Source: Asterionella formosa
Taxonomy: Eukaryota
DNA: 33,831 nt
NCBI GenBank assembly: GCA_002256025.1
Contig: NKIB01000289.1
Location: 1-33,831, forward strand
Direction of reading: 5' to 3'
Shown here: positions 1 through 33,831 of the stretch, in pieces
Layout of the letters: each line of letters starts with the position of its first letter
Position numbering within the stretch: the stretch's first letter is position 1
Position numbers and translations under genes: made by a program
The notes under the pieces: model-generated
Told to the model about the DNA's origin: nothing
What the model saw: only the letters and a program-made list of their open reading frames with translations
Database searches by the model: none

Positions 1-1827
1 GATGGTGTCATCGTCCAATATTAGCGTGCGTGCTGCGGATGATTGCTGACGTGTGCCTGCACGAGTAGGAGTAGGTGAGGTCACAAAGCCTGTAGATGGC
101 CTATTCATTTCTCGATCGAGCTTTGTTGATTTCGTAGCATTATTCGTACGAGGCTCATTCGTATTCATACCACCTGCGACGGAATCTGCAAAGCTCACTC
201 CCTTGGGAGTACTGGGATCATCTTGTTTTGTTGGTAGCAGTGTAGTAGAACATTGCTCGTCAGGAGGCATTGCGTTGGTAGGTTTAGTAGGAATGTCGAA
301 TTCCTCATCTATACCGGATCCGTCTGTGGTGAATTTGTCCATGTCCGCTGTGGGTTTGGCATTTCCATGCCAGTCGGCCCATTTAAGGTCTCTTGTGTTA
401 AAGACCTTTTTCGTTGTAAAGTTGTACATGCGGTAGGTATCACTGGCGTGGTCATGGCTGTATCCAAGCATGACACATTTGACACTTTTTGGGGTCAGTT
501 TCTGCCTTGGCGTCCGAATCGTGGCCCACCCCACCCTGCCAAACTGAATCTGGTGAGGATAAATCTTAGGCTGAAAGCCGTAGAAAAGCCAATCGGGGCA
601 TTTTCCCGTATTCGAGTTAGCGACAGAGTTCGTTAGTCGCGTGTGCATGTGGACACTCTCGGCCCACAGTAGCCCCTGGTATTTGTCTGACAATTTTGTG
701 TTGAACATGGAGGCACATGCTCGGTCTCGTATCGTCACAAATTATCGTTCCACGACTCCGTTCTGTTGAGGAGTATGGGGGGCAGTATACTCAATCTGAA
801 TACCCTGCGTGGTGCAGACGATACTTAGACTGGTCATGTTTTCACCGGCGTTGTCGCAGCATAGGAAGCGTACGACATACCCCGCTGACTTGAGTGTAGT
901 CAATAGGGCATCCGCGATGCTTGCCAAAAGACTCTTCCTGTTAACAAAATAACTCCATGCCTTGCCTGTGTACTGATCCACAAATAGAATCCAGTAGTTG
1001 CTTCAATTAGAGATTTCTTGTTGGGACCTGAAATGTCTACGTACAATCGTTCAGCAGGAGTAGTTGCCTTGAGGGTCGTGACTTTAGGTACCGCTTTGGC
1101 CTTTGCCTTAGCTAGTGCGCAGCCTTCACATGACTGAATCTTGCCGGTAGGTTCAATACCGAGGGACTTTAGCGTTTCGCAAAGGGATGCCTTGCTGATG
1201 TGGCCGTATTTGTCGTGGGCCTCGTTGATGTCAATTTGCGTTGGTTTCTTGGTAGTTTTTGCCGTAGGAAGTTGCGTCACTGTCTTGGTATTCATTGGAG
1301 TAGGATCAGGTGTACGGTTTGTTGTCGAGTCGTGGATAGACAAGACCGTTTCGGATTTTAGGGTACGTTTTCCCCTTAAGTAGTAAAGGACGCCTTGATC
1401 CTCACAAGAAAAGGTTAGCTTGTTGTCATACCCTTCCTTATGTAGACTCAACTCAGACCCCTTCATGCGTGCCTCGCACCCTCCGTTCTTGACAAATTGC
1501 CCGATGCTGACGATATTCTTGTGGAAGTGTGGAGTGTAGAGTACCTTGCGTAGTAACATGGAGCACGTCTTGTTGGTAATTAAAATGTCACCTCGTTTCG
1601 TGCATACCACCTCTTTACTGTCACCGACAACGACCGAGACGTTGACATTTTCGACGTTTGTCATGTATTCGTCAATCATAGTGATGTGCGTGGTAGCCCC
1701 AGTGTCCGCGAGCCAGCGCTCCGTTCCGTTGCTTGATGCGCAGTATTGGTCTTTGTACCACTCCTCTTCCATTGTAGGGACAAAACACACGCGTAGGAGT
1801 TCTTCAGTACGGTAGGAGTCTCGGCAT
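1..1827 (-). pseudogene. pol: Copia pol: aspartic protease, GAG-pre-integrase HHCC, integrase core and SH3-like region; disrupted
   Basis: Motifs WLADTGATTH, HDKYGH...CEGC, YVDISGP, CDNAGE, TPQQNGVVER, LWAE and KCVMLGYS...YRMYN. Lesions: frame change at about 1785-1827, a 1-nt loss near 1004 (ATT G-A AGC AAC TAC TGG) and an in-frame TAA at 742-744, after which the frame continues (FVTIRDRACASMF...). Confidence 0.92.
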
Positions 1828-2791
1828 CATTCTGCGTCACGTCCATGGTACCGGGGATATTGTCCGTCGCCTCCATACCAGTAATCTCCTCGCACATTCC
1901 GACGTACATGCCGGTTTCTTTTTTCTTCTCGCCGCATGGTGCACGTTTTGGTTCCGGGCAGTCTCTTGCAATATGCCCGACATATTTATTGCAATTATAG
2001 CACTTTATCTCATTTTTTTCGTTCGTACCGTTTGCATTCGTTCCGCTTGTGTTCGTTTTCGATCGGCACACGTCGGCCTTGTGCCCTTGTTTGCCGCAAT
2101 TCTTGCAGATACCTTTGTATTTCTGCGTGAATAGGGCAATCTCCTTTGTGCTCTTCGTGCCCTTTAGCTTTCGTTTGTAGAATGCTCGGATCTTTCCTTT
2201 CAATTCGTTGAGGCTGATTGTTGTCATGCCCTCGACGACTGTAACAACCTCGCTGTACTCCACTGGAAGCTTGTCGATTACGTTCGCAATCACTTCCATT
2301 TCTTTCTTCTCAAATGACGGGTCGATCGCCATCATCTTGCTTTGTATTAGATCGAGCTCAATGAACCATTCGTCTGGATCAGAGGAGCTATCGTTCAGCT
2401 TGCATTTGTTGAAATCGCTTGCCAGCTGGATCAGGTCCGACACAGAATGGGGGGCATACCTCGCTTCGAGGTTCTTCCACGCCATATATGCATCGCCATC
2501 GATCAACGTTTTCGTTTTGGCTTGGTTTACAAGTCCGAAGGCGATTCCGGTGCAGCTCATGATGAGCAACTGGTACGCCTTGTCGTTGGCCTCGTAGATT
2601 GCCCTGACTCCTTTGTCTGTTTCCAATTCGTACTCTTCGTCAGAACACGGGTTGTGGTTCTTGGAGTACATCGTTCGGAATCCTCTTGCCTTCGCCAGAG
2701 CAAGCGTTTTAACGCTCCACTGGTACCAGTTCGTTTCGTTGCCATCAAACTTGATGAGCCTCATGCTCTCTTCAGACATTTCTGTAGACAT
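1676..2791 (-). CDS. gag: Copia Gag with two CCHC zinc knuckles; the last ~40 codons are probably out-of-frame read-through past a frameshift
   Basis: N-terminal FDG.ETNWYQW motif typical of Copia gag; knuckles CKNCGKQGHKADVC and CYNCNKYVGHIARDC. Confidence 0.9.
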   Translation of the reverse strand: MSTEMSEESMRLIKFDGNETNWYQWSVKTLALAKARGFRTMYSKNHNPCSDEEYELETDKGVRAIYEANDKAYQLLIMSCTGIAFGLVNQAKTKTLIDGDAYMAWKNLEARYAPHSVSDLIQLASDFNKCKLNDSSSDPDEWFIELDLIQSKMMAIDPSFEKKEMEVIANVIDKLPVEYSEVVTVVEGMTTISLNELKGKIRAFYKRKLKGTKSTKEIALFTQKYKGICKNCGKQGHKADVCRSKTNTSGTNANGTNEKNEIKCYNCNKYVGHIARDCPEPKRAPCGEKKKETGMYVGMCEEITGMEATDNIPGTMDVTQNDAETPTVLKNSYACVLSLQWKRSGTKTNTAHQATERSAGSRTLGLPRTSL

Positions 2792-2819
2792 ATTAAACGC
2801 TTAAGTCTGTTTATAAACG

Positions 2820-3244
2820 TGTTAAAGTATTACCTTTTTGATAGATCTATATTGTTAGACAAAGAAGACTATAGATAGAGACGTTCGTTTCTCTTTCCTT
2901 TTCTATATTCTTATTGTAAGTTTACTAATCTAGTTTAGGTTGTTCTGTTTGCTTGAACAAAACAAACGAACTATTCTCCAAATGCTGTTTGCATTTCTAG
3001 AAACATACAATCATAGATGGACCCATGTCTATCTCACACTTACTGATCATAGGTTTTTAACCATGATCATTCATTTCAAACTATCGGTCTTCCGAAATAG
3101 CTTATATTGTCCGGCTCATTATAGTCGGAGTAACAAGTTATAATATGTGGTTGATGAGAGCTTGGTACATCAAAGTGGACTCATTCGAATCGTTTGACTC
3201 GTTTGACTCCGAGTCCTAACTACGCAGATGAGCTCACTTTTACA
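2820..3244 (-). repeat. 5' LTR (425 bp) of the Copia element
   Basis: Plus strand reads TGTTAAAG...CTCACTTTTACA. It is colinear end to end with 11911-12365 (shared blocks ctccaaatgctgtttgcattt, gacccatgtctatctcaca, tgtggttgatgagagcttggtacatcaaa), and similarity stops at the TG/CA ends. Confidence 0.9.
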
Positions 3245-3339
3245 CATAAATAGAGGGTACTGCTTTTTTCAGCAGTGGTGCAGGGTCCGCTTGACGAAAA
3301 TAGTGTGTGTACTTTCGATGATAAAATCGAGAAATGGTG

Positions 3340-3450
3340 GTCCATTATACTTTTGGCACAACTTAGTCTGAAACTGCGCCATGAGTTATTCCAGGGAATT
3401 TGTGATTACTTTTTTGACTAAATATCTAGCAAATAAGTAATTATTTATCT
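3340..3450 (+). repeat. Fragment of an old dispersed repeat, similar to 25464-25578
   Basis: Shared blocks in the same order: gtccatta.actttt.gca, atgagtt, gattact, ttttgactaaat..tagcaaat. Confidence 0.5.
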
Positions 3451-4338
3451 AATTTCCCATGTTAGCTTGGAATGTCTATCTCTGTCTATATTTCACGATC
3501 ACAGATTTATAATCAATGGACACAATGCCTGAATATGAAGACAAACTTAAACATGAAATATATACACACACAAGCAAACAATATATTTCCATACTTATAT
3601 AGCGACAATTACAAGCACACCAGGACGAAGTATGACTGAAATTGCTCCTATTTTACTTTTCATAGAATGGGTCTAATGCAATTGTTGAAAATTCGCGTTG
3701 CCCAAACAGGTTGCTGCGGTTGTAATGGTGCATCAACTTTGTTCATGCGCCGAAAATTGAGGAAACAAGAGCAATTATAAAATTGAGCGCTATCATTGGA
3801 AAATTGTTGTCGATTGCTTTACGTACCCAAAAGGAATCAATTTTACGAATTACAAATATACATACTTTTTAGTGCTCCTAAGACATGAGTATTTATGTAC
3901 TTTTTAACTGTATAATTGCCAAGTAGATGCCAGTATGTTCCTACACATTCAAATTAGGTATATATATATCTAACTGTGTATACATATGCACATCAATGAT
4001 CTCAGTTTGTTTCAGGCACTCCAGAGCGGCTTATGGTATTCAGTGGAGGAGGCCAACCACAATACAGAGACTCTGAAGTGTGTATTCATCCATGAACATT
4101 TTTGTTTTTCTTTCAAAAATGGTAGGATTAATCTCTTCATGGCTGCGTAAATCTTTGTTGACTTCACCTTGATCTATGCATCTATTTATAGTTTAATGAT
4201 GGGCAATATCGGACCTTTGGCAATTTTCGAGGTGAAGATAGGAAATTAGGAAATATATTTTCTATGATGGGCTATAGCGAGCTAAAATTGACATTTACAC
4301 TTGATGAGTGGGCAGTAGGTATGCGAATGGTGCAACGA

Positions 4339-4566
4339 TAGCTAGTTTGTGAATTGCCTCAGCAATACCCTTCTCAGTGGCTACATGCCTTCTAGTACAA
4401 ATGTGTACTTGGCTGGGATGGCACTTTTAGGGTGATCTTCTTGCAGTGCCAGGGGTGCCACTTGTACAGTCAACCTACTCATGCCACCCAGCCTTGAACA
4501 CATGTATACTTGCAGGCATGAGACCACCTTGGACGTGTATTGCCTTCAGCAGTTGGTGGTCTGCTA
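4339..4566 (+). other. Long imperfect inverted repeat / rod-like hairpin
   Basis: Arms 4362-4423 and 4482-4543 pair in blocks (gcaatac/gtattgc, gtgg/ccac, catgcct/aggcatg, agta/tact, atgtgt/acacat, ggctggg/cccagcc, tggca/tgcca). Pairing continues inward to a GGGG loop and outward. Confidence 0.8.
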
Positions 4567-4978
4567 CAAATCCATAGATTGCTTCAACATACATAAATAT
4601 ATATTGTCATACATATTTCCACCATACTGTGCCTGTTCACAATTGAATGACAATACCAGAGGTACATTCCAATATTTCTCCACTAACTACCTTTGTGTTT
4701 CAATATTAAATCTATGTCAAATATACTAAATTCTTGTGTCCGTATTATGTATTGCAGTTCGAATACATAGATGAAAGAAACAAAAAAGAAATCGAAATTG
4801 CTCTTGGATGCAGAACAATCTCTGTTTCTTTTGTCACGGCTAAGGGTACACATGGCAAGAGTCTTGCAAGTAAACTGGACTACATTCGCACAGTAGATGA
4901 GAATGTGAACACCATAACTTGAGAGTAAACCATTGATCCCAAAGAAGTCACGTCACAAGACAATTACTCATTCCCTTA

Positions 4979-5578
4979 TCAATTTTTTCTGGCACTCCAC
5001 TTTTGGCGTTTCTTCATTGACTTCTTCTTTCCTTTATAAAAATCCACGTAATTACATCGACCAGTGACACATTGATTTGGTTTTGGTTGTTCAATATCAA
5101 TGGTCCAATAACAATCTTTAATCTTTCCACATTTATATTGTCCACTCCAATGATCTGAATATCTTATAACACCGACAGTTCCATCCTTCCAATACAAACT
5201 ACCGCCCTTGGATGTATAGTCTGGTGCATGCGAAGGTTTGGAACAGGCAGTAAAATTCGCCACTGTTTGAATCCAAAAATTATCAAAATTAACCGCTACT
5301 ACGGGTTCATTGTCTTGGTATCGTTGTTGCTGCTGTTGGTAAGTCATGATATCAATGACTGAAGCAAATGATCGTCGTCCCATGAAACATGGTGGTGATA
5401 CTAGAATACGCTTCTGTACTCGTTGATTATTGAATGCAGTGGAAAAGGCAAATGTGTCCTGGCGTTGAAATCGAAATAGCAGGCACATGAAGAATAGTGC
5501 CATGCCAAAAGACGTCGTTGTATATCGTAACTTTCTTTGTTTCAGTTGATACTGTGTCATCATGTAGCCATACAACAA
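4979..5578 (-). CDS. Hypothetical protein, probable host gene with putative signal peptide + plastid transit peptide (true start may be the downstream Met of MALFFMCLL)
   Basis: Intact 199-aa ORF: hydrophobic stretch then TFAFSTAF, an Arg/Gln-rich linker, a compact W/Y/C-rich domain (PDYTSKGGSLYW...VIRYSDHW...IKDCYW) and a basic tail. Confidence 0.7.
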   Translation of the reverse strand: MLYGYMMTQYQLKQRKLRYTTTSFGMALFFMCLLFRFQRQDTFAFSTAFNNQRVQKRILVSPPCFMGRRSFASVIDIMTYQQQQQRYQDNEPVVAVNFDNFWIQTVANFTACSKPSHAPDYTSKGGSLYWKDGTVGVIRYSDHWSGQYKCGKIKDCYWTIDIEQPKPNQCVTGRCNYVDFYKGKKKSMKKRQKWSARKN

Positions 5579-6726
5579 AATTCTGAACTTCTGTTTTCAC
5601 TTCAGTCAACGGCCAATGACGATGAATGGACCTTCAAAAAAACAGTTTCGCTTTACAGGAATGGTTCCCCAAATACTATTTTACTCTCAATCGCAATGGT
5701 CACCTTCTCCGAAGAATTCACAGAGTGATGAATATGTATATGCCGGCATGTATATTTGCCATGACACTAAGAATGAAAATGCATTGACATAACTATAAGC
5801 GATTCATCTAAACAAAAAGCAAATCCGACGAAAACGAAGTAAACAAACAACAATCATACCAGTACACGCACATACCGCCGGGTATTCATACATGTATTGC
5901 ATACTATACAGGTAAAGAGTACTCCAACTCCGTATTCGTAGACCCATGTAGTTGCAATACACTATATTGGCTGTCAGACGTAGTACGTGGTGCGTAAATC
6001 TTCTCGTATGAATGCCGATATACCGCTATGTTTAGTATTATAGACAAGGGAAACAGGGGGATGTGCACGAAGCACGTATTGAAACCAAGGGAACGACAAA
6101 CAAACTAGGAGCAAGCGAAATTTGATGTAGAGGCCGAGTTAGCAACCACGGGAGCTAATTCTGTCTAGCCAAAAAATTTGAAGATGAGGTTCGATGGCTA
6201 GTGAATGACAGTAAACCATGCAAGAGGTCATGGAAGAGTCAATCAGCCAATGAACAACCATGTAAGGGTTTCAAGGCAGAAAGCTCACATTTCTTCCAAT
6301 CAGCTTTCAGCAAAGCAACATCGTTGAATCCAAGCCGTGCAAAATTTATAGTCAATATATAAAATTCACCCTCCCTACATCACACCCAGGGCTGAAGTGC
6401 AAACTCGACTGCAGCTACGGGGACCCGGAGGGGGAAATGAATCATACCACATAGAACCGATATCAAAAACCCAAACTACGCGTCTAAAGATTAACTATCG
6501 AGGAGAAGCAAGAGAAATATTTGCAGGAAAAGGCAGTCGAACAAGTCGGTAATTGAGTCGAACTAACTAAGTTTATCATATGCTGTTTACCAGTCCTCGG
6601 AGTACCAGGTCCTTTCTTAATTTTTCCCGGTCTCTATGCAGTATATGCACTGTATTAGTGAACCCCTTATTTGGTTATGGTGAATATTAAAATTGACGAT
6701 CACTGATTGGCTGCCCTCCACCCTAT

Positions 6727-8251
6727 GCGATGGTAGTAGAAATAAATGCTCTAATGGCAAAAGATACTTGGACTATTATACCACGAGCATCCATTCCGAA
6801 CAAAACTGTCCTACCGGGAACATGGGCGTTCAAGAGGAAGAGATTTCCTGATGGTCGTTCGTCTTCGAAAATTCAAAGCACGCTTCTGTGTCTGTGGTGA
6901 CAAACAAGTTGAAGGTGTTGATTATTTCGAGACATATGCACCAGTAGTGCAATGGTCCACGGTGCGATGCTTACTGGTTATGTCAATTGTGTTAGGACTT
7001 GAGACACAACAAATTGACTATAGTAATGCATTTTGTCAAGCAGAGATTGAAGAAGAAGTGTACGTGGAGTTACCGAAAGATTTCGACGACAAGCAAGGGC
7101 GCGACATGGTCCTAAAGCTAAATAAATCGCTTTATGGTACAAAACAAGCTCCACGGGCATGGTTCCTTAAACTTAAGGAAAGCCTAGAGGAACGTGGGTT
7201 TCAGCAGTCTAAGCTGGATCCATGTTTCTTCATGCACAAAGATATGGTGTACCTGAACTATGTAGATGATGGTATACTGATTGGGAAAGATGGTGCTAAG
7301 ATTGAGTCAGTGATTGACAATCTTGGTACTACATTAGAGTTAACAAGAGAAGGAGACCTTTCAGCCTTTCTAGGTATTCAAATTGATAAAAATGAGAATT
7401 GTTCTCTAAAACTAACTCAGGAAGGATTAATAATGAGAGTACTAGAGGCTAACAAGGTGCAAGACTGCAGGCGTACAACAACTCCAGCAATTAAGGAAAC
7501 TTTAGGTGCTGATGTCAATGCTGAACCTGCAGAAGAACAATGGAACTACAGGTCAATTGTAGGCATGTTATTGTACTTGGCTTCTAATTCTCGACCGGAC
7601 ATAGCATTTGCAGTTCATCAGTGTGCGCGATTTTCACATTGTCCAAAAGTACCACATGAAGGGGCAATTAAGAAAATTTGTCGGTATCTAAAAGGAACAG
7701 CAACCGAAGGGATCGTATTTACACCATCCAAGGAATTTGCAATTGATTGTTATGTGGATTCAGACTTTGCAGGATTATATGGTATTGAAGATTCACATGA
7801 TCCAGTTTGTGATAAGTCAAGGACAGGGTACATCATAACGTTAGCTGGATGTCCTCTACTATGGGTATCCAAACTACAGACCACTATAGCCCTATCTACT
7901 ATGGAAGCTGAGTACCAGGCCTTGTCAGCAAGTTGTCAGGATTTTATTCCATTAAGACAAATTTTCAAGGAGGCATCTGAAGCTCTAGAGATTACTGAGC
8001 GGTTCATAGTACGGTCACATTCAAAGATATACGAAGACAATAGTGCATGTTTGTCTCAAGCAACGATGCCGAAAATGACGCCGCGTACAAATCATATTGC
8101 AGTGGCATATCATTGGTTTAGAGAGTACGTGTCATCAGGTGATATTGAAATCTTAAAGATTGAAACTACGAAACAACTTGGGGACATTTTCACAAAGGGT
8201 TTAGTAACAGAGAAATTTACAGCAATACGCAAGTTACTATGTTGATGGTAG
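6727..8251 (+). pseudogene. pol: Copia reverse transcriptase + RNase H (CoDi-like), 5'-truncated
   Basis: Motifs AMVVEINAL...TW, GTWAFKRKRFPDG, FKARF, ETYAPVV, QIDYSNAF, KSLYG, YVDD, SRPDI, YVDSDFAG, STMEAEY, YEDNSAC and QLGDIFTK. A 4-bp TCGT duplication near 6859 shifts the frame. TGA at 8243-8245 probably replaces the Gly of a terminal LCGW*. Confidence 0.95.
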
Positions 8252-8266
8252 CAACATGCTTTTGCT

Positions 8267-8275
8267 GAGAGGGAG
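8267..8275 (+). promoter_or_regulatory. Polypurine tract GAGAGGGAG
   Basis: Purine run 15 nt after the end of pol, directly abutting the LTR. Confidence 0.8.
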
Positions 8276-8934
8276 AGTTGAAACACATAGAGATTCCTGA
8301 TTCCTGATCAGGTTATGAGTGTCAATATATTTTCGCCTCTAGTGACCTGATTAGGAACATGTACCACAATCCACTAGATGATTGATTCAAGATCACATGG
8401 TTGAATATCGCGTGTAAAATGCCACAGTTGAGAGAGGAACTTTCAGGAGAAGTTCTCTCTAACCTGTTAATTGGACTCTAGAAGACGATCAGACCTAGAG
8501 GCCAAATCAATAAATGATTGACTAGACAATTACAGATATGTCCGCAAAATCAAGGAACATTAAAGAAGCAAACTAGATATGATCTAGTTATGATTAACAG
8601 GATCATTCTGTAAGCAGTCTTCGATCAAACAGCATCTGGCCTAAGTTGAGACAGGCCAAGATTAAGACAAAAGTGTACTTAGGAAGAGGAAGTAGTTTAT
8701 TCTCAGTTCAAGTTGGGAACACAAATGAACCTCGCCTCCGAAGATCACCACTATTTTGAAACATGCATGAGCTTGGAAGTTTCAAAATTATACATTCAAT
8801 TTACATTTACATTAAGCTCACTCTTTTATAAAAACAATTATTAGCAAACAAAGTAAAACAAACAAATTGTGTAGAAACATTTTTCTAGCAAATTTTACTG
8901 TGTGAGAGCTACAGATACGCATCATCTACCAACT
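8276..8934 (+). repeat. 3' LTR (~659 bp) with apparent AGTTG...CAACT termini
   Basis: Follows the PPT. Its distal half is repeated inverted at 33525-33831, and homology ends just after CAACT, the reverse complement of the AGTTG start. Confidence 0.75.
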
Positions 8935-9026
8935 TATGTCCATTTTAAATAAGAAATCATAGGAAATATATATCTTATGTTTGAAATACAGGTATATGTA
9001 TGATGCCAATTTATTCATGGCTTTGA

Positions 9027-9184
9027 TCATCACAGTTCTATGATCAATGCATCATAGCTATGTGATGTACTTTATTCATTATTATGTATCATACTTTGGT
9101 GATGTATGCATCGCTGTAACCCTATCATGATATCACATTATCATCTTATCAATCATGATGAGATGATTGGGAAGCAACTGTATT
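9027..9184 (+). repeat. ATC/GAT-rich dispersed repeat, copy 1 (copy 2 at 18981-19135)
   Basis: Near-identical text atcatcacagttc.atgatcaatgcatcatagct...gtatcatactttggtgatgtatgcatcg...gatatcacattatcatctt. Confidence 0.9.
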
Positions 9185-9263
9185 ATGCATCGTGCTACGG
9201 GGTATATTATTACATCACGCAATTTAGTAGCTAACAAGTCACTCCGCCTGTAATGTACAAAAG

Positions 9264-9712
9264 TCGACAGTGCACATACTCACACGCTAATCAGGTTTGA
9301 GGAAACGGACAGTGGTTCCAACGAGCGAATAATGATACCACGAGTACCAATTTTTCCAGCAAAAGAACTTGTCTCTCTATTGATGAGGATGAAACGGACA
9401 CCGACTTTTCCAGGAGCAAACAACAATGAAGAAACCCACTTGTCGCTCTATTGATGTTAACAAAGATGCGAACAAGTTCAACAGTGAATACAAGAACAAC
9501 ATACCAATGAAACCAATTCGACAGTGTGTGTACGCACACGATAAGCAGGTTTGAGGCAACGGACAGTTCCAACAAGCAAATGACGATACGGATAGTATCA
9601 AATATTTCCTACGAGCAAACAACAATGAAAAGAGCCACTTGCTTTCGCTCTCTTGATGGTATCAAAGATGCGGACAAGTTCAACAGTTAATTCAAGTACA
9701 GTATGCCAAATG
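9264..9712 (+). repeat. Diverged tandem duplication (units start at 9264 and 9518; second unit shorter)
   Basis: Duplicated blocks tcgacagtg, caggtttgagg.aacggacagt, gagcaaacaacaatgaa and caaagatgcg.acaagttcaacagt. Confidence 0.85.
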
Positions 9713-10662
9713 CAGAAACGAGCGAGCGATATGAAAATGAAATTGTAATCAGAATCATTCTATAGCTATAGCTATGTGGACAGTAGTCTGTTACGCACAT
9801 TTTCGTATCTCCTTCTATGCTGAATCTCAATAGTAGATGTAGTATCATGTGAGAATTGAAAATGTCAACGAGAACAAGTAGAATGTGTTTGTTTCTGGGT
9901 TGATTGGCGAGATTGTCATGCTGAAGTGGACGAAATGGATATACTTTGTGCGCTGTGTGCGGAAATATTACGAGTTCGAATGGTTTCTTCTTTCCTGTAA
10001 ACTCTTAATTGAATGATTATGAACAAAGGTTCACTGCACATGACGATTACTCGAAGATATAAAGATCACTTGACCAACAAATTGAAGACGTTATCGCAAA
10101 CATTCATTCCGCTATTTCGTTGTTGTTGCAAAAATCGGAGTGATGACGGATGGAAATGACGAGCCAAATTATATTACTTGAACTGGTACATTATCCTACC
10201 AAGAAATTCGAATACAGGAATCAAATAGAAACAATACATATAACAATTAAATGTATGTAGTCAAAAGGGTTACTATTTAAATTACAAAGGCATTTATCAA
10301 AATTATTAGATGATATAACGAAATATTATGATCAGATGATCACAATTCTATGATGCATCATGGAAATATGATAGTTTTTATTTGCAGACGTCCACTACCA
10401 GGTATTTCCAAAATCGACTTTGAATACAAGCAAGGATGCCAAATTTGTAGTGACCAATGTAGGAAGTAGCGGGTTAGGTGCATCATTCCGACTTGGAATT
10501 GTTACATGAGCATCTTTATGGATGGGTATAGCCACAGGGAGGGTGACTGTTTTTGTCAATAATTCAAAAGTGGAAGCTCCTTTTTTACAAGTTCCATGGC
10601 ACTTGGTGAGTTGTGATTGACAAGATATTCAATGTTTTTACCTTCCTTCGTCCCCTTTTGTT

Positions 10663-28538: not shown

Positions 28539-28817
28539 ATGGAAGATATTTCAGACAAAAGCGAAGAAGTGGCTGACGAAGATGACAGTCACAGCAACAG
28601 TGGCTGACAGTGACAGTTTTGCTATCGAAAACAGCCTGAATTTAAATAGGGTAATGAGGATGACTTCAACAGCTGCGATATCGAAGAAATCGAGGGTGGA
28701 GTGGGCACTACTGTCACAGAAGAGCCTGGGATCTCCTTGGAAAGCGGGGTTCTTTAAGCACTTGATGACGGTGTTTTCGTCAATCCACCAAATGAAACAA
28801 AAGCTGAGGTGTGGGTG
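28539..28817 (+). pseudogene. N-terminal acidic fragment of a MULE-like transposase; 28692-28817 is repeated inverted at 29688-29813
   Basis: MEDISDKSEE...GGVGTTVTEEPGISLESGVL*ALDDGVFVNPPNETKAEVWV matches the peptide in the minus ORF 29452-29904. Confidence 0.6.
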
Positions 28818-28820
28818 AAA

Positions 28821-29041
28821 AGTGGTTAGCACACATGTTGTGGTGGCAGGTTCGATTCCTGCATTCTCCACCTGTTTGTTCATGTAGTCCCTAGGGTCCC
28901 CGGGGGTTGCGGCTGACAAAAAGGCAGATCCTGTTGTACCATACAGACAAATAAAACTGGTACTAATTGTGTCCATTTATTCATTTATTTGGGCACGAGT
29001 GCGATTATTGGATAGCTTAAATGTACTATAACATTTGATTG
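28821..29041 (+). mobile_element. SINE-like element with tRNA-His-derived head (5' clipped), copy 1
   Basis: AGTGGTTAGCAC (D-loop), TTGTGG (GTG anticodon loop), a perfect T-arm GCAGG-TTCGATT-CCTGC and ATTCTCC-A-CC, then a ~170-bp body repeated at 29811-29989. Confidence 0.7.
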
Positions 29042-32029: not shown

Positions 32030-32850
32030 AGCATATTCCATGTGTTATTCAGGCCACTACTGAACTCACTACTGGCTTGAATCTATGATTTACAGAGCTA
32101 TCTACATTTTCCTGTATGAATCTCATTGGAAGGTTCATACAATGGCAGTTGTACCTCACCTAGAAGATTGCTCAGCTCTTTGCTTGGATTGGAAATCCTA
32201 CTGTGGTGATTGATATTGATGTTCACCTCCATTGTTGTAATGGTTTACATTAACAAGATTGCTTGACTCCCGAATGCATCTATCTTACTTTTCTGGACAT
32301 TTACTCTGGTTCTGCTTATTACATTTCTCATTAGCAAGTACATGAACTTTCATCCTCCTGAGGACTGCATTGGAACTGTTACAGAATTCTTTGCCTTTGT
32401 ACACCACCCAACAGTGAAATCCAATGAATTCTGTCGATACACTTTGCAACGCATGCGCTTAGGATCCTATCTATTCAGGAAATCAATTTTGTACCATTTT
32501 CTCCAGCAACATTGGTGATGTAGATCACTCATTTCCAATTCATTTTGATTTCATGTTAGCATATTCTATGGTGCCTCAACATACACTCACACTGGAATAT
32601 GCTCTTGGTGGTTCTACAGTCCTACTGAATCATTGAACAATCAAATTCATGCTCTGATGAGTCTCAGGAATCAACAGATCCATGTGTCCTATTTTCCTTC
32701 TGTTTACAACAGGACCAACACTCAAGTCCTACACGCAAATACCCAACTTGATCAAATCTCATTGTTCAAGATTGACTCCACTGTTTTCCTCTTGATGCTA
32801 AGAAGATTCTTTCATTGCCTTGCCTTTTGGTGCTCCCTTTTCACAATGCA
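32030..32850 (+). pseudogene. Very degenerate Copia RT/RNaseH relic
   Basis: Faint motifs in the expected order: TTGL (TPGLW-like), HLED, DWKSYCG and ISLFKIDST. Confidence 0.3.
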
Positions 32851-33224
32851 CCTGTATACTGGTGTTGATATGATATATTGCGCCTGCTCTAGCATGCTCC
32901 AGCACTACCCTGGAATGACTGGTCAAGATCTTTCTCACACCGCTTGTTTGCGTATTATTCTGCTCTATATAACTTAAATAGAGCAGAATAACTCCTGTCT
33001 ATTTCCATTTTGACATTCCTCATACTTCATCTATTCTTTGGACACCTGTCAACATCAACAGCCTAACAGACACACTCTGACATCCTCCCCTGTTGATGCT
33101 TGACATACCACATCATCCTAATGTGTATGCTCGACACATCCTTTCCTACAGGCTTTTTCATAGTGCCCTCTCTTTTCCTTCTTCTCTTTTTTCTTTTTCT
33201 CTTCATTTTTCTTTCTGTTCTTGC

Positions 33225-33288
33225 TGAGGACTCGAACTCTCGACCTCTATTTTCACGTACATCCTCGTGCCACTTGTACTAACCAGCC
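33225..33288 (-). promoter_or_regulatory. Degenerate tRNA-like sequence / Pol III A and B boxes inside the TRIM
   Basis: A-box TAGTACAAGTGG (33281-33270), variable-loop-like AGGTC and B-box GAGTTCGAGTCC (33239-33228) at tRNA-like spacing. Acceptor and anticodon stems are not intact. Confidence 0.55.
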
Positions 33289-33296
33289 CGCTACCA
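33283..33296 (-). promoter_or_regulatory. Primer-binding site, initiator-tRNA-Met-like
   Basis: TGGTAGCG immediately after the 5' LTR, complementary to a ...CGCTACCA tRNA end as in the Ty1 PBS. Confidence 0.75.
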
Positions 33297-33524
33297 TTTT
33301 GAAATATATGGCGCCTACTCGAGAGCGCGCTCCAGTACTGCCCTGGAATGATCGGTCGATCTTTCTCGCGCCTCTCGTTTGCATACATGATATTAAACTG
33401 CCATGTATAAATCCTTTCTATTTCCGTTTAGGCATTCCTCACACTACATCTTGCCTTCGGACACCTGTCGACATCAACAGCCTAACAGACACACTCTGAC
33501 ATACTTGTAGGTATGTAATACATA

Positions 33525-33831
33525 AGTTGGTAGATGCTACGTATCTGTAGCTCTCACGCAGTAAAATTTGCTAGAAAAATGTTTCTACACAATTTGTTTG
33601 TTTTACTTTGTTTGCTAATAATTGTTTTTATAAAAGAGTGAGCTTAATGTAAATTTGAATGTATGATTTTGAAACTTCCAAGCTCATGCATGTTTCAAAA
33701 TAGAGGTGATCTTCGGAGGCGAGGTTCATTTGTGTTCCCAACTTGAACTGAGAATAAACTACATCCTCTTCCTAAATACACATTTGTCTTAATCTTGGCC
33801 TGTCTCAACTTAGGCCAGATGCTGTTTGATC
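33525..33831 (-). repeat. Second copy (inverted, cut by window edge) of the 8276-8934 LTR
   Basis: Reverse complement of about 8623-8934 with only scattered substitutions and one small indel. Confidence 0.95.

Follow-up and report, generated by a model that had tools for sequence, protein, structure and literature searches.

The closest described systems to the element reported here are the Helenus elements (Kojima 2024, PMC10886601), which are TRIMs of fungi, animals and Selaginella that carry tRNA-derived sequence in their LTRs, with boxes A and B conserved and mostly without a functional tRNA. The same paper describes Ajax, with 5S-derived sequence in its LTRs, places Helenus, Ajax and Cassandra together in the class TRIMp3, and proposes that tRNA-bearing TRIMs originated by insertion of SINE2 into a TRIM or LTR; it reports no complementarity of the tRNA-like part of Helenus to the PBS (PMC10886601).

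The window (the whole stretch of 33,831 nucleotides that was analysed) is repeat DNA of eukaryotic type and contains fragments of copia-type gag, integrase and RT, and its end is occupied by a 639-nt mini LTR element on the minus strand (33501-32863). Like Helenus (PMC10886601), this is a short non-autonomous LTR element with a PBS, a polypurine tract and TSDs of roughly 5 bp; the hundreds to thousands of copies given there for Helenus are comparable to the abundance of the TRIM found here, and in both cases a tRNA-like piece keeps boxes A and B without being a functional tRNA, having likely entered a TRIM in the manner of a SINE. Unlike the module described here, the module of Helenus is located in the LTRs and thus occurs twice, upstream of the PBS, where initiation by Pol III is able to define the replicative RNA, whereas the LTRs of the present element lack the module and a single interior copy overlaps the 3' end of the PBS. 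The host is a freshwater eukaryote, as against the fungi, animals and Selaginella named for Helenus. The motifs also differ: box A of Helenus is given there as TRGCY...YGG and reads TAGTA...TGG here, departing at the C and the following Y, and box B is given as GGTTC and reads AGTTC here, a single departure, with both boxes fitting a looser tRNA-invariant pattern. The element is a positional variant of the published class of tRNA-bearing TRIMs, and the original prediction, which had ranked it as the best candidate in this DNA for an undescribed system, was pre-empted in kind in 2024 by Helenus and TRIMp3 (PMC10886601).

Three further systems are instructive. Cassandra and Ajax are likewise TRIMs with a Pol III promoter motif of small-RNA-gene origin, but theirs is 5S-derived and located in the LTR, whereas the present one is tRNA-like and interior; Rfam matched no 5S sequence in the window at the gathering score, nor at E of 10 or less over 32800-33600. 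The tRNA-based analogue of Cassandra that had been envisaged survives in part: an HMM makes a tRNA-related origin likely, but an interior module is not Cassandra-like. The module shares with tRNA-derived SINEs (SINE2) a head related to tRNA, in which the A and B boxes stand at tRNA spacing and the stems have decayed, and an A-rich tail behind it; it differs from them in being enclosed by LTRs and propagated by the LTR route, and in showing no LINE-related 3' part and no convincing TSDs. The tRNA-like element of HIV-1 also places a tRNA-resembling sequence next to the PBS, but mimics the primer tRNA in its fold and anticodon loop, whereas the likeness found here is one of boxes, with no support from folding. 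A literature search on LTR elements with tRNA or SINE modules returned, among the texts it covered, LTR-borne modules only (Cassandra, Helenus, Ajax) and no interior, PBS-adjacent one, and a search of the literature for the PBS string returned only unrelated primer sequences.

As it stands, the element is a modest positional variant of a published element type. Its interest is that the interior of a TRIM, and not only its LTRs as in Helenus, can carry pairs of tRNA-like Pol III boxes, that tRNA-bearing TRIMs are extended to a freshwater protist in a family that is very abundant in DNA and in metatranscriptomes, and that modules of this kind give rise to tRNA-like false leads and may also supply dispersed TFIIIC sites.

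Structure of the element

The 5' LTR (TGTCAG...CAAAA, 33297-33501, minus strand) is 205 nt long and forms a direct repeat with the 220-nt 3' LTR (33082-32863, minus strand); at 33297 it reads ...TTTCAAAA, where the family majority instead ends CAACA. Abutting it on the same strand, to which all the features below also belong, is the PBS TGGTAGCGGGCT (33285-33296), which occurs once in the window and is presumably complementary to an initiator-Met-type tRNA. Directly after the PBS comes GGCTGGT-TAGTACAAGTGG, followed by AGGTCGAGAGTTCGAGTCCTC, which carries the B-box-like AGTTCGAGTCC. The pattern of tRNA invariants against which these motifs were compared is U8 R9 G10 Y11 A14 R15 G18 G19 followed at 42-48 nt by G53 T54 T55 C56 R57 A58 Y60 C61; the A-box-like 12-mer TAGTACAAGTGG (33270-33281) fits all positions of its first half and the B-box-like 11-mer AGTTCGAGTCC (33228-33238) all positions of its second. 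The first T of TTC (33236) lies 45 nt beyond the T of the A box (33281). Together these motifs define a tRNA-like module (33228-33288) that corresponds approximately to tRNA positions 1-62 and overlaps the PBS by its first four nucleotides, and behind the module is a tail-like A/G-rich tract (33166-33225) that is 0.90-0.95 conserved between copies. The PBS that runs directly into an A-box-like and then a B-box-like motif on the minus strand, the spacing of 45 nt and the purine-rich tract had all been predicted, and the coordinates bear out each of them.

The remaining interior (33094-33165, 72 nt) has a 3' part that is invariant in all four aligned sequences, and ends at the polypurine tract ACAGGGGAGGA (33083-33093), which abuts the 3' LTR and is identical between copies at 10 of 10 positions. 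The 3' LTR (32863-33082) contains a copy-specific, hairpin-forming insertion at 32955-32991. A candidate TSD flanks the element, AAGTA at the 5' side (33502-33506) and CAGTA at the 3' side (32857-32861); the two agree at four of five positions, an imperfect duplication that is offset by one extra base, the C at 32862. Aligned with gaps (216 columns), the LTRs are only 76% identical, as against 82-87% within ungapped blocks, and the window element is an old, decayed copy. The features by which TRIMs are recognised are all present: two short direct LTRs (TG...CA) within less than 1 kb and without coding capacity, a PBS beside the 5' LTR and a polypurine tract beside the 3' LTR, and, for the family, a TSD (imperfect in the window), many dispersed copies and solo LTRs.

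The insertion in the 3' LTR, an almost perfect inverted duplication of 37 nt (TTATTCTGCTCTAT...ATAGAGCAGAATAA), lies across the TATA-like region and is missing from the 5' LTR and from two metagenomic relatives (L004 and L003, below); weak miRNA-like Rfam matches fall on it.

Family members, insertions and abundance

Relatives were sought with a 21-mer from the LTR terminus, chosen to avoid bias toward the tRNA-like part, which matched six metagenome loci (L001-L006). One of them, L004, is a full copy, younger than the one in the window, with LTRs that are 95.5% identical; L006 is a nearly full copy cut by the end of its contig, and both have the same element plan as the window copy, with the PBS unchanged in L006 and altered at one position in L004. 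L003 consists of the 3' part of the element and L002 is flank of the L006 locus, while L005 was rejected as a family member, being unrelated sequence with a chance match to the 21-mer. GGAGT is found on either side of the element in L004, and the 5' junction has an additional C. L001, with a single LTR between the same two flanks that enclose the full element in L004, represents a solo-LTR allele. Since L004, L006 and L003 share flanks, these copies and the window copy represent only two independent insertions.

The family was surveyed at 80% likeness or more in Logan contigs of two DNA runs (X1, X2) and two RNA runs (X15, X18), of which X1 yielded 11,561 matching contigs. The summed depth of X1 on the element is 0.25-1.3 million, versus approximately 800-1,040 for contigs identical to the window. 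Where the match of a contig ends at an LTR edge (33501, 33299 or 33082), the contig runs on into unrelated flanks (agreement 0.38-0.57). The depth excess and the diversity of flanks at the LTR edges therefore identify a high-copy family with many independent insertions, which comprises hundreds of copies or more as well as solo LTRs. Within the module the family majority differs from the window copy at 33239, at 33249 (together with one inserted base), at 33269 and at 33284, and each majority difference accounts for approximately 98% of the X1 depth and is shared with L006. Depth over 33168-33263 is low in all four runs, as the substitutions and indels of the window copy break alignments there, and this dip was given no weight. 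Neither blastn nor a search for the PBS found another TRIM copy or an autonomous partner in the window, and patterns for the module and the LTR had no match in collections of genome contigs and viral contigs.

Some further observations concern the DNA around these copies. In the window, open frames related to copia-type gag, zinc-knuckle, integrase and RT (RVT_2) sequences lie at 1-2800 (minus strand) and 6755-8245 (plus strand); none of these has the PBS or interior of the TRIM, and no autonomous partner is evident among them. The repeat directly upstream of the TRIM (33504-33831) is of very high copy number, with a summed depth of 0.47-1.4 million in X1. The solo LTR (L001, 954-1153) and the full element (L004, 766-1385) are alleles in different metagenome records with flanks that are 97-98% identical, and this pair, as its sequences indicate, is a case of LTR-LTR recombination as a natural polymorphism. 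Approximately 360 nt of 5' flank are common to the L004 and L006 loci at 85-88%, which would place either the TRIM inside a larger repeat or both copies in a duplicated locus.

tRNA likeness and probable origin of the module

The module is rejected as a tRNA gene because its stems are gone, and no dedicated tool recognises it as one. ARAGORN found no tRNA at the site with its default threshold or with thresholds of 90% and 80%; lowered to 70%, it reports 33217-33287, together with 121 other sites in the window. Rfam gave no tRNA-clan match in the window at the gathering score, and none at E of 10 or less on 801 nt of sequence, on the 96-nt module, on the whole of L004 and L006, or on the 101-nt L006 module. 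The covariance-model match (RF00005) that would have supported the original prediction was not obtained, and ARAGORN called the site only at the threshold that yields 122 calls in the window. Folding of three copies compared with shuffled sequences gave z-scores of +0.62, -0.79 and -0.54, none of them better than the shuffles.

Likeness to tRNAs is found at the level of primary sequence. A sequence-only HMM was built from 23 class I tRNAs of E. coli K-12, which are bacterial and not host tRNAs, and was controlled with 300 dinucleotide shuffles of the window. It matched L006 at tRNA positions 37-64 with 13.0 bits (E 0.0027), a score reached by none of the 300 shuffles. The window copy was matched at 33247-33226, equivalent to positions 43-64, with 8.2 bits (E 0.084; 7 of 300 shuffles), and L004 with 5.7 bits (E 0.49; 44 of 300 shuffles). 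The signal arises mainly from the stretch between the variable loop and the T loop, and likeness to tRNAs extends past the boxes in L006 and, more weakly, in the window copy and L004. The A-box half (33286-33270) is collinear with tRNA positions 3-19, yet scores -1.5 bits and is not significant alone. The likeness stops near position 62, where the purine tract begins, and the 3' strands of the T stem and acceptor stem are missing. Neither the HMM nor Rfam matched a tRNA in the LTRs. On the strength of these alignments, a tRNA-related origin of the module is likely.

The reading favoured on balance is that the module is a tRNA- or SINE-derived relic carried passively in the interior of a high-copy, transcribed TRIM. 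According to this model, a remnant of a tRNA, or of the head of a tRNA-related SINE, would account for tRNA positions 1 to approximately 62 and break off shortly past the B box, ahead of the A/G-rich tail; in a single event, the SINE-like unit would have inserted into the interior of an ancestral TRIM, beside the PBS or in overlap with it, and would have been copied along with the TRIM since. Replication would proceed by the ordinary LTR route, as suggested by the TATA-like motif of the LTR, the PBS, the polypurine tract and the RNA contigs that extend from LTR to module. The boxes, if still active, would yield a by-product RNA or a binding site for TFIIIC, as opposed to a replication promoter of the Cassandra or Helenus type. 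The 7-mers AGCGGGC and AGAGGGC, which are alike at six of seven positions, bracket the module and its tail, but are too weak to serve as proof of a TSD. In L004 the corresponding 7-mers are AGCAGGC and AGAAGGC (approximately 975-981 and 1108-1114; alignment columns 225-231 and 353-359), with the same G-to-A change in both; this is probably a coincidence, although conversion between short direct repeats would also fit.

Capture of the primer tRNA by read-through, another origin that had been suggested, is unlikely enough to be rejected: copying of a primer would leave an antisense tRNA, whereas the module is in sense orientation, and what follows the B box bears no match to the 3' strand of the acceptor stem implied by the PBS.

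Transcription and possible activity of the boxes

A TATA-like TATATAG is located inside the LTR (L006 1282-1288, found by eye). The repeat at 33504-33831, no less abundant than the element in both DNA runs (X1, X2), was taken as an internal silent control. In RNA run X15 the bins of the element reach 90,000-476,000, compared to 19-158 in the adjacent repeat, and in X18 the element has approximately 900-9,958, compared to 65-124; these are depths summed per contig, and contigs carry no information on transcript starts, strand or level. The TRIM family (32863-33501) is strongly present among contigs of lake and freshwater metatranscriptomes, with a maximum summed depth of approximately 476,000 in X15, and this non-coding family appears to be among the well-transcribed sequences of the host in nature. 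Of the three X15 contigs listed over the junction of LTR and PBS, two (33250-33338 and 33262-33342) cross it, with no fewer than 31 nt to either side, and RNA-library sequence therefore spans the LTR, through the PBS, into the module.

Whether the boxes contribute to this transcription depends first on their state in the family. The A-box-like 12-mer is identical in all three copies (window, L004 and L006). The B box is intact in the window and in L006; in L004, G53 is replaced by C. In three runs, represented by 25, 5 and 17 contigs, the B-box stretch (near 33250) is the consensus, with an agreement of 0.98-0.99, and the canonical distance of 45 nt from T8 to G53 is exact in L006 and in the family majority. 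The pair of boxes is a genuine family-wide feature, and conservation in the consensus, on which the original prediction had been staked, is found in the family majority and at canonical spacing. Preferential conservation, which was to be checked as well, is not: the module is conserved at 0.90-0.93 and the rest of the interior at 0.93-0.95, among three copies that represent two independent insertions.

One alternative to passive carriage is that the boxes form a working internal type-2 Pol III promoter, such that each copy is a Pol III unit, with SINE-like RNA, recruitment of TFIIIC or replication in tandem arrays fed by it as the outcome. Several observations are consistent with this: each invariant position of the pattern above is preserved, in both boxes, by the family majority at canonical spacing; the stems have decayed while the boxes have been kept, as reported for Helenus and for SINE heads (PMC10886601); from the module to the end of the element, the sense strand contains no run of four or more T (by eye), so Pol III would meet no early stop; and RNA of the family is abundant.

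At a type-2 promoter, Pol III starts roughly 10 nt upstream of the A box. The expected start is inside the PBS; an RNA begun there would be missing R-U5 and most of the PBS and so could not be a template for replication by the LTR route. The RNA-library contigs, by comparison, reach 42-46 nt upstream of the PBS into the LTR, and the ratio of X15 to X1 depth, a weak measure, already stands at approximately 1.0 upstream of any Pol III start, in the LTR bin 33312-33359. The boxes are, besides, no more conserved than their surroundings, and L004 has lost G53. With this evidence set against it, a working Pol III promoter in each copy seems unlikely.

More tentative still is a combination of the two modes, in which the interior boxes would be an active, selected Pol III or TFIIIC site in a TRIM that replicates via Pol II-type LTR transcripts. 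If it were so, the copies, in their hundreds, would all be dual-polymerase units, whose Pol III sites could produce a separate small RNA, define chromatin boundaries or act as beacons for integrases that target tRNA genes, and the element would represent a third architecture beside SINEs and the LTR-borne TRIMp3 elements. Active boxes would also provide a natural case in which to study the role of a Pol III site inside a Pol II-driven retroelement.

Chance resemblance and tRNA mimicry

A second alternative to the passive relic is that the resemblance to tRNA is accidental, an ordinary TRIM leader having acquired two short motifs that were then multiplied by amplification of the family. Taken singly, each box is at chance level: the B box with at most one mismatch has two matches in the window versus 0.73 expected (17 of 100 shuffles reach two), and a loose A box has 12 matches versus 10.6 expected (36 of 100 shuffles reach 12). 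Accident would also be in keeping with the lack of a covariance-model match or of structure, with the insignificance of the A-box half in the HMM, and with the fact that the site was picked by eye from a very large scan, in which a handful of chance pairs is expected overall.

The pair is another matter. An A box and a B box 30-60 nt apart occur once in the window and in none of 60 shuffles, while a looser definition of the pair gives six occurrences versus a shuffle mean of 2.8 (7 of 60 shuffles reach six). Simulation of the full invariant pattern at the composition of the window produced 13 pairs in 40 Mb, equivalent to 0.011 per window and 7e-5 per 215-nt interior. A box pair at tRNA spacing is unlikely to occur by chance in this position. 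Furthermore, the HMM score of the consensus-like L006 is equalled by none of 300 shuffled windows, the likeness continues past the boxes into the variable-loop stretch, and the majority sequence is more tRNA-like than the decayed window copy, both in spacing and in score. Chance had been tied in the original prediction to two outcomes, the lack of a covariance-model match and the lack of conservation of the boxes in the consensus; the former was observed, but the boxes are conserved. Accidental resemblance is not negligible, but it is a minority reading and quite improbable.

Mimicry of tRNA for priming or packaging, whereby RNA beside the PBS would engage a tRNA-binding host factor or place the primer, is very improbable: the module is immediately beside the PBS and the concept has been proposed for retroviruses with the tRNA-like element of HIV-1 (PMC5113203 and PMC5689005), but none of the copies surpasses its shuffles in folding, the three copies show no compensatory changes, and the HMM alignment (by eye) has TGA at the anticodon position and lacks U33, and hence offers no mimic of the initiator anticodon loop.

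Other hairpin-forming and tRNA-like sequences

Long palindromic arrays of GGTACC-type units (GGTACCAGGTACCTGG...) are present in the flanks of two metagenomic copies (approximately 790-1030 in L006 and 1420-1535 in L004), and yield hairpin-like and miRNA-like matches in Rfam.

A second tRNA-like stretch of the window lies on the plus strand at 28840-28872 (context 28800-28880) and consists of a perfect T arm, GCAGG / TTCGATT / CCTGC, followed by ATTCTCCACC. ARAGORN at its default threshold and Rfam reported no tRNA in this stretch; the E. coli-tRNA HMM matched it at positions 43-75 with 12.3 bits (E 0.0042), a score attained by none of 300 shuffled windows. It could be a tRNA pseudogene or the head of a SINE if read on the plus strand, or a long tRNA-complementary PBS if read on the minus strand.
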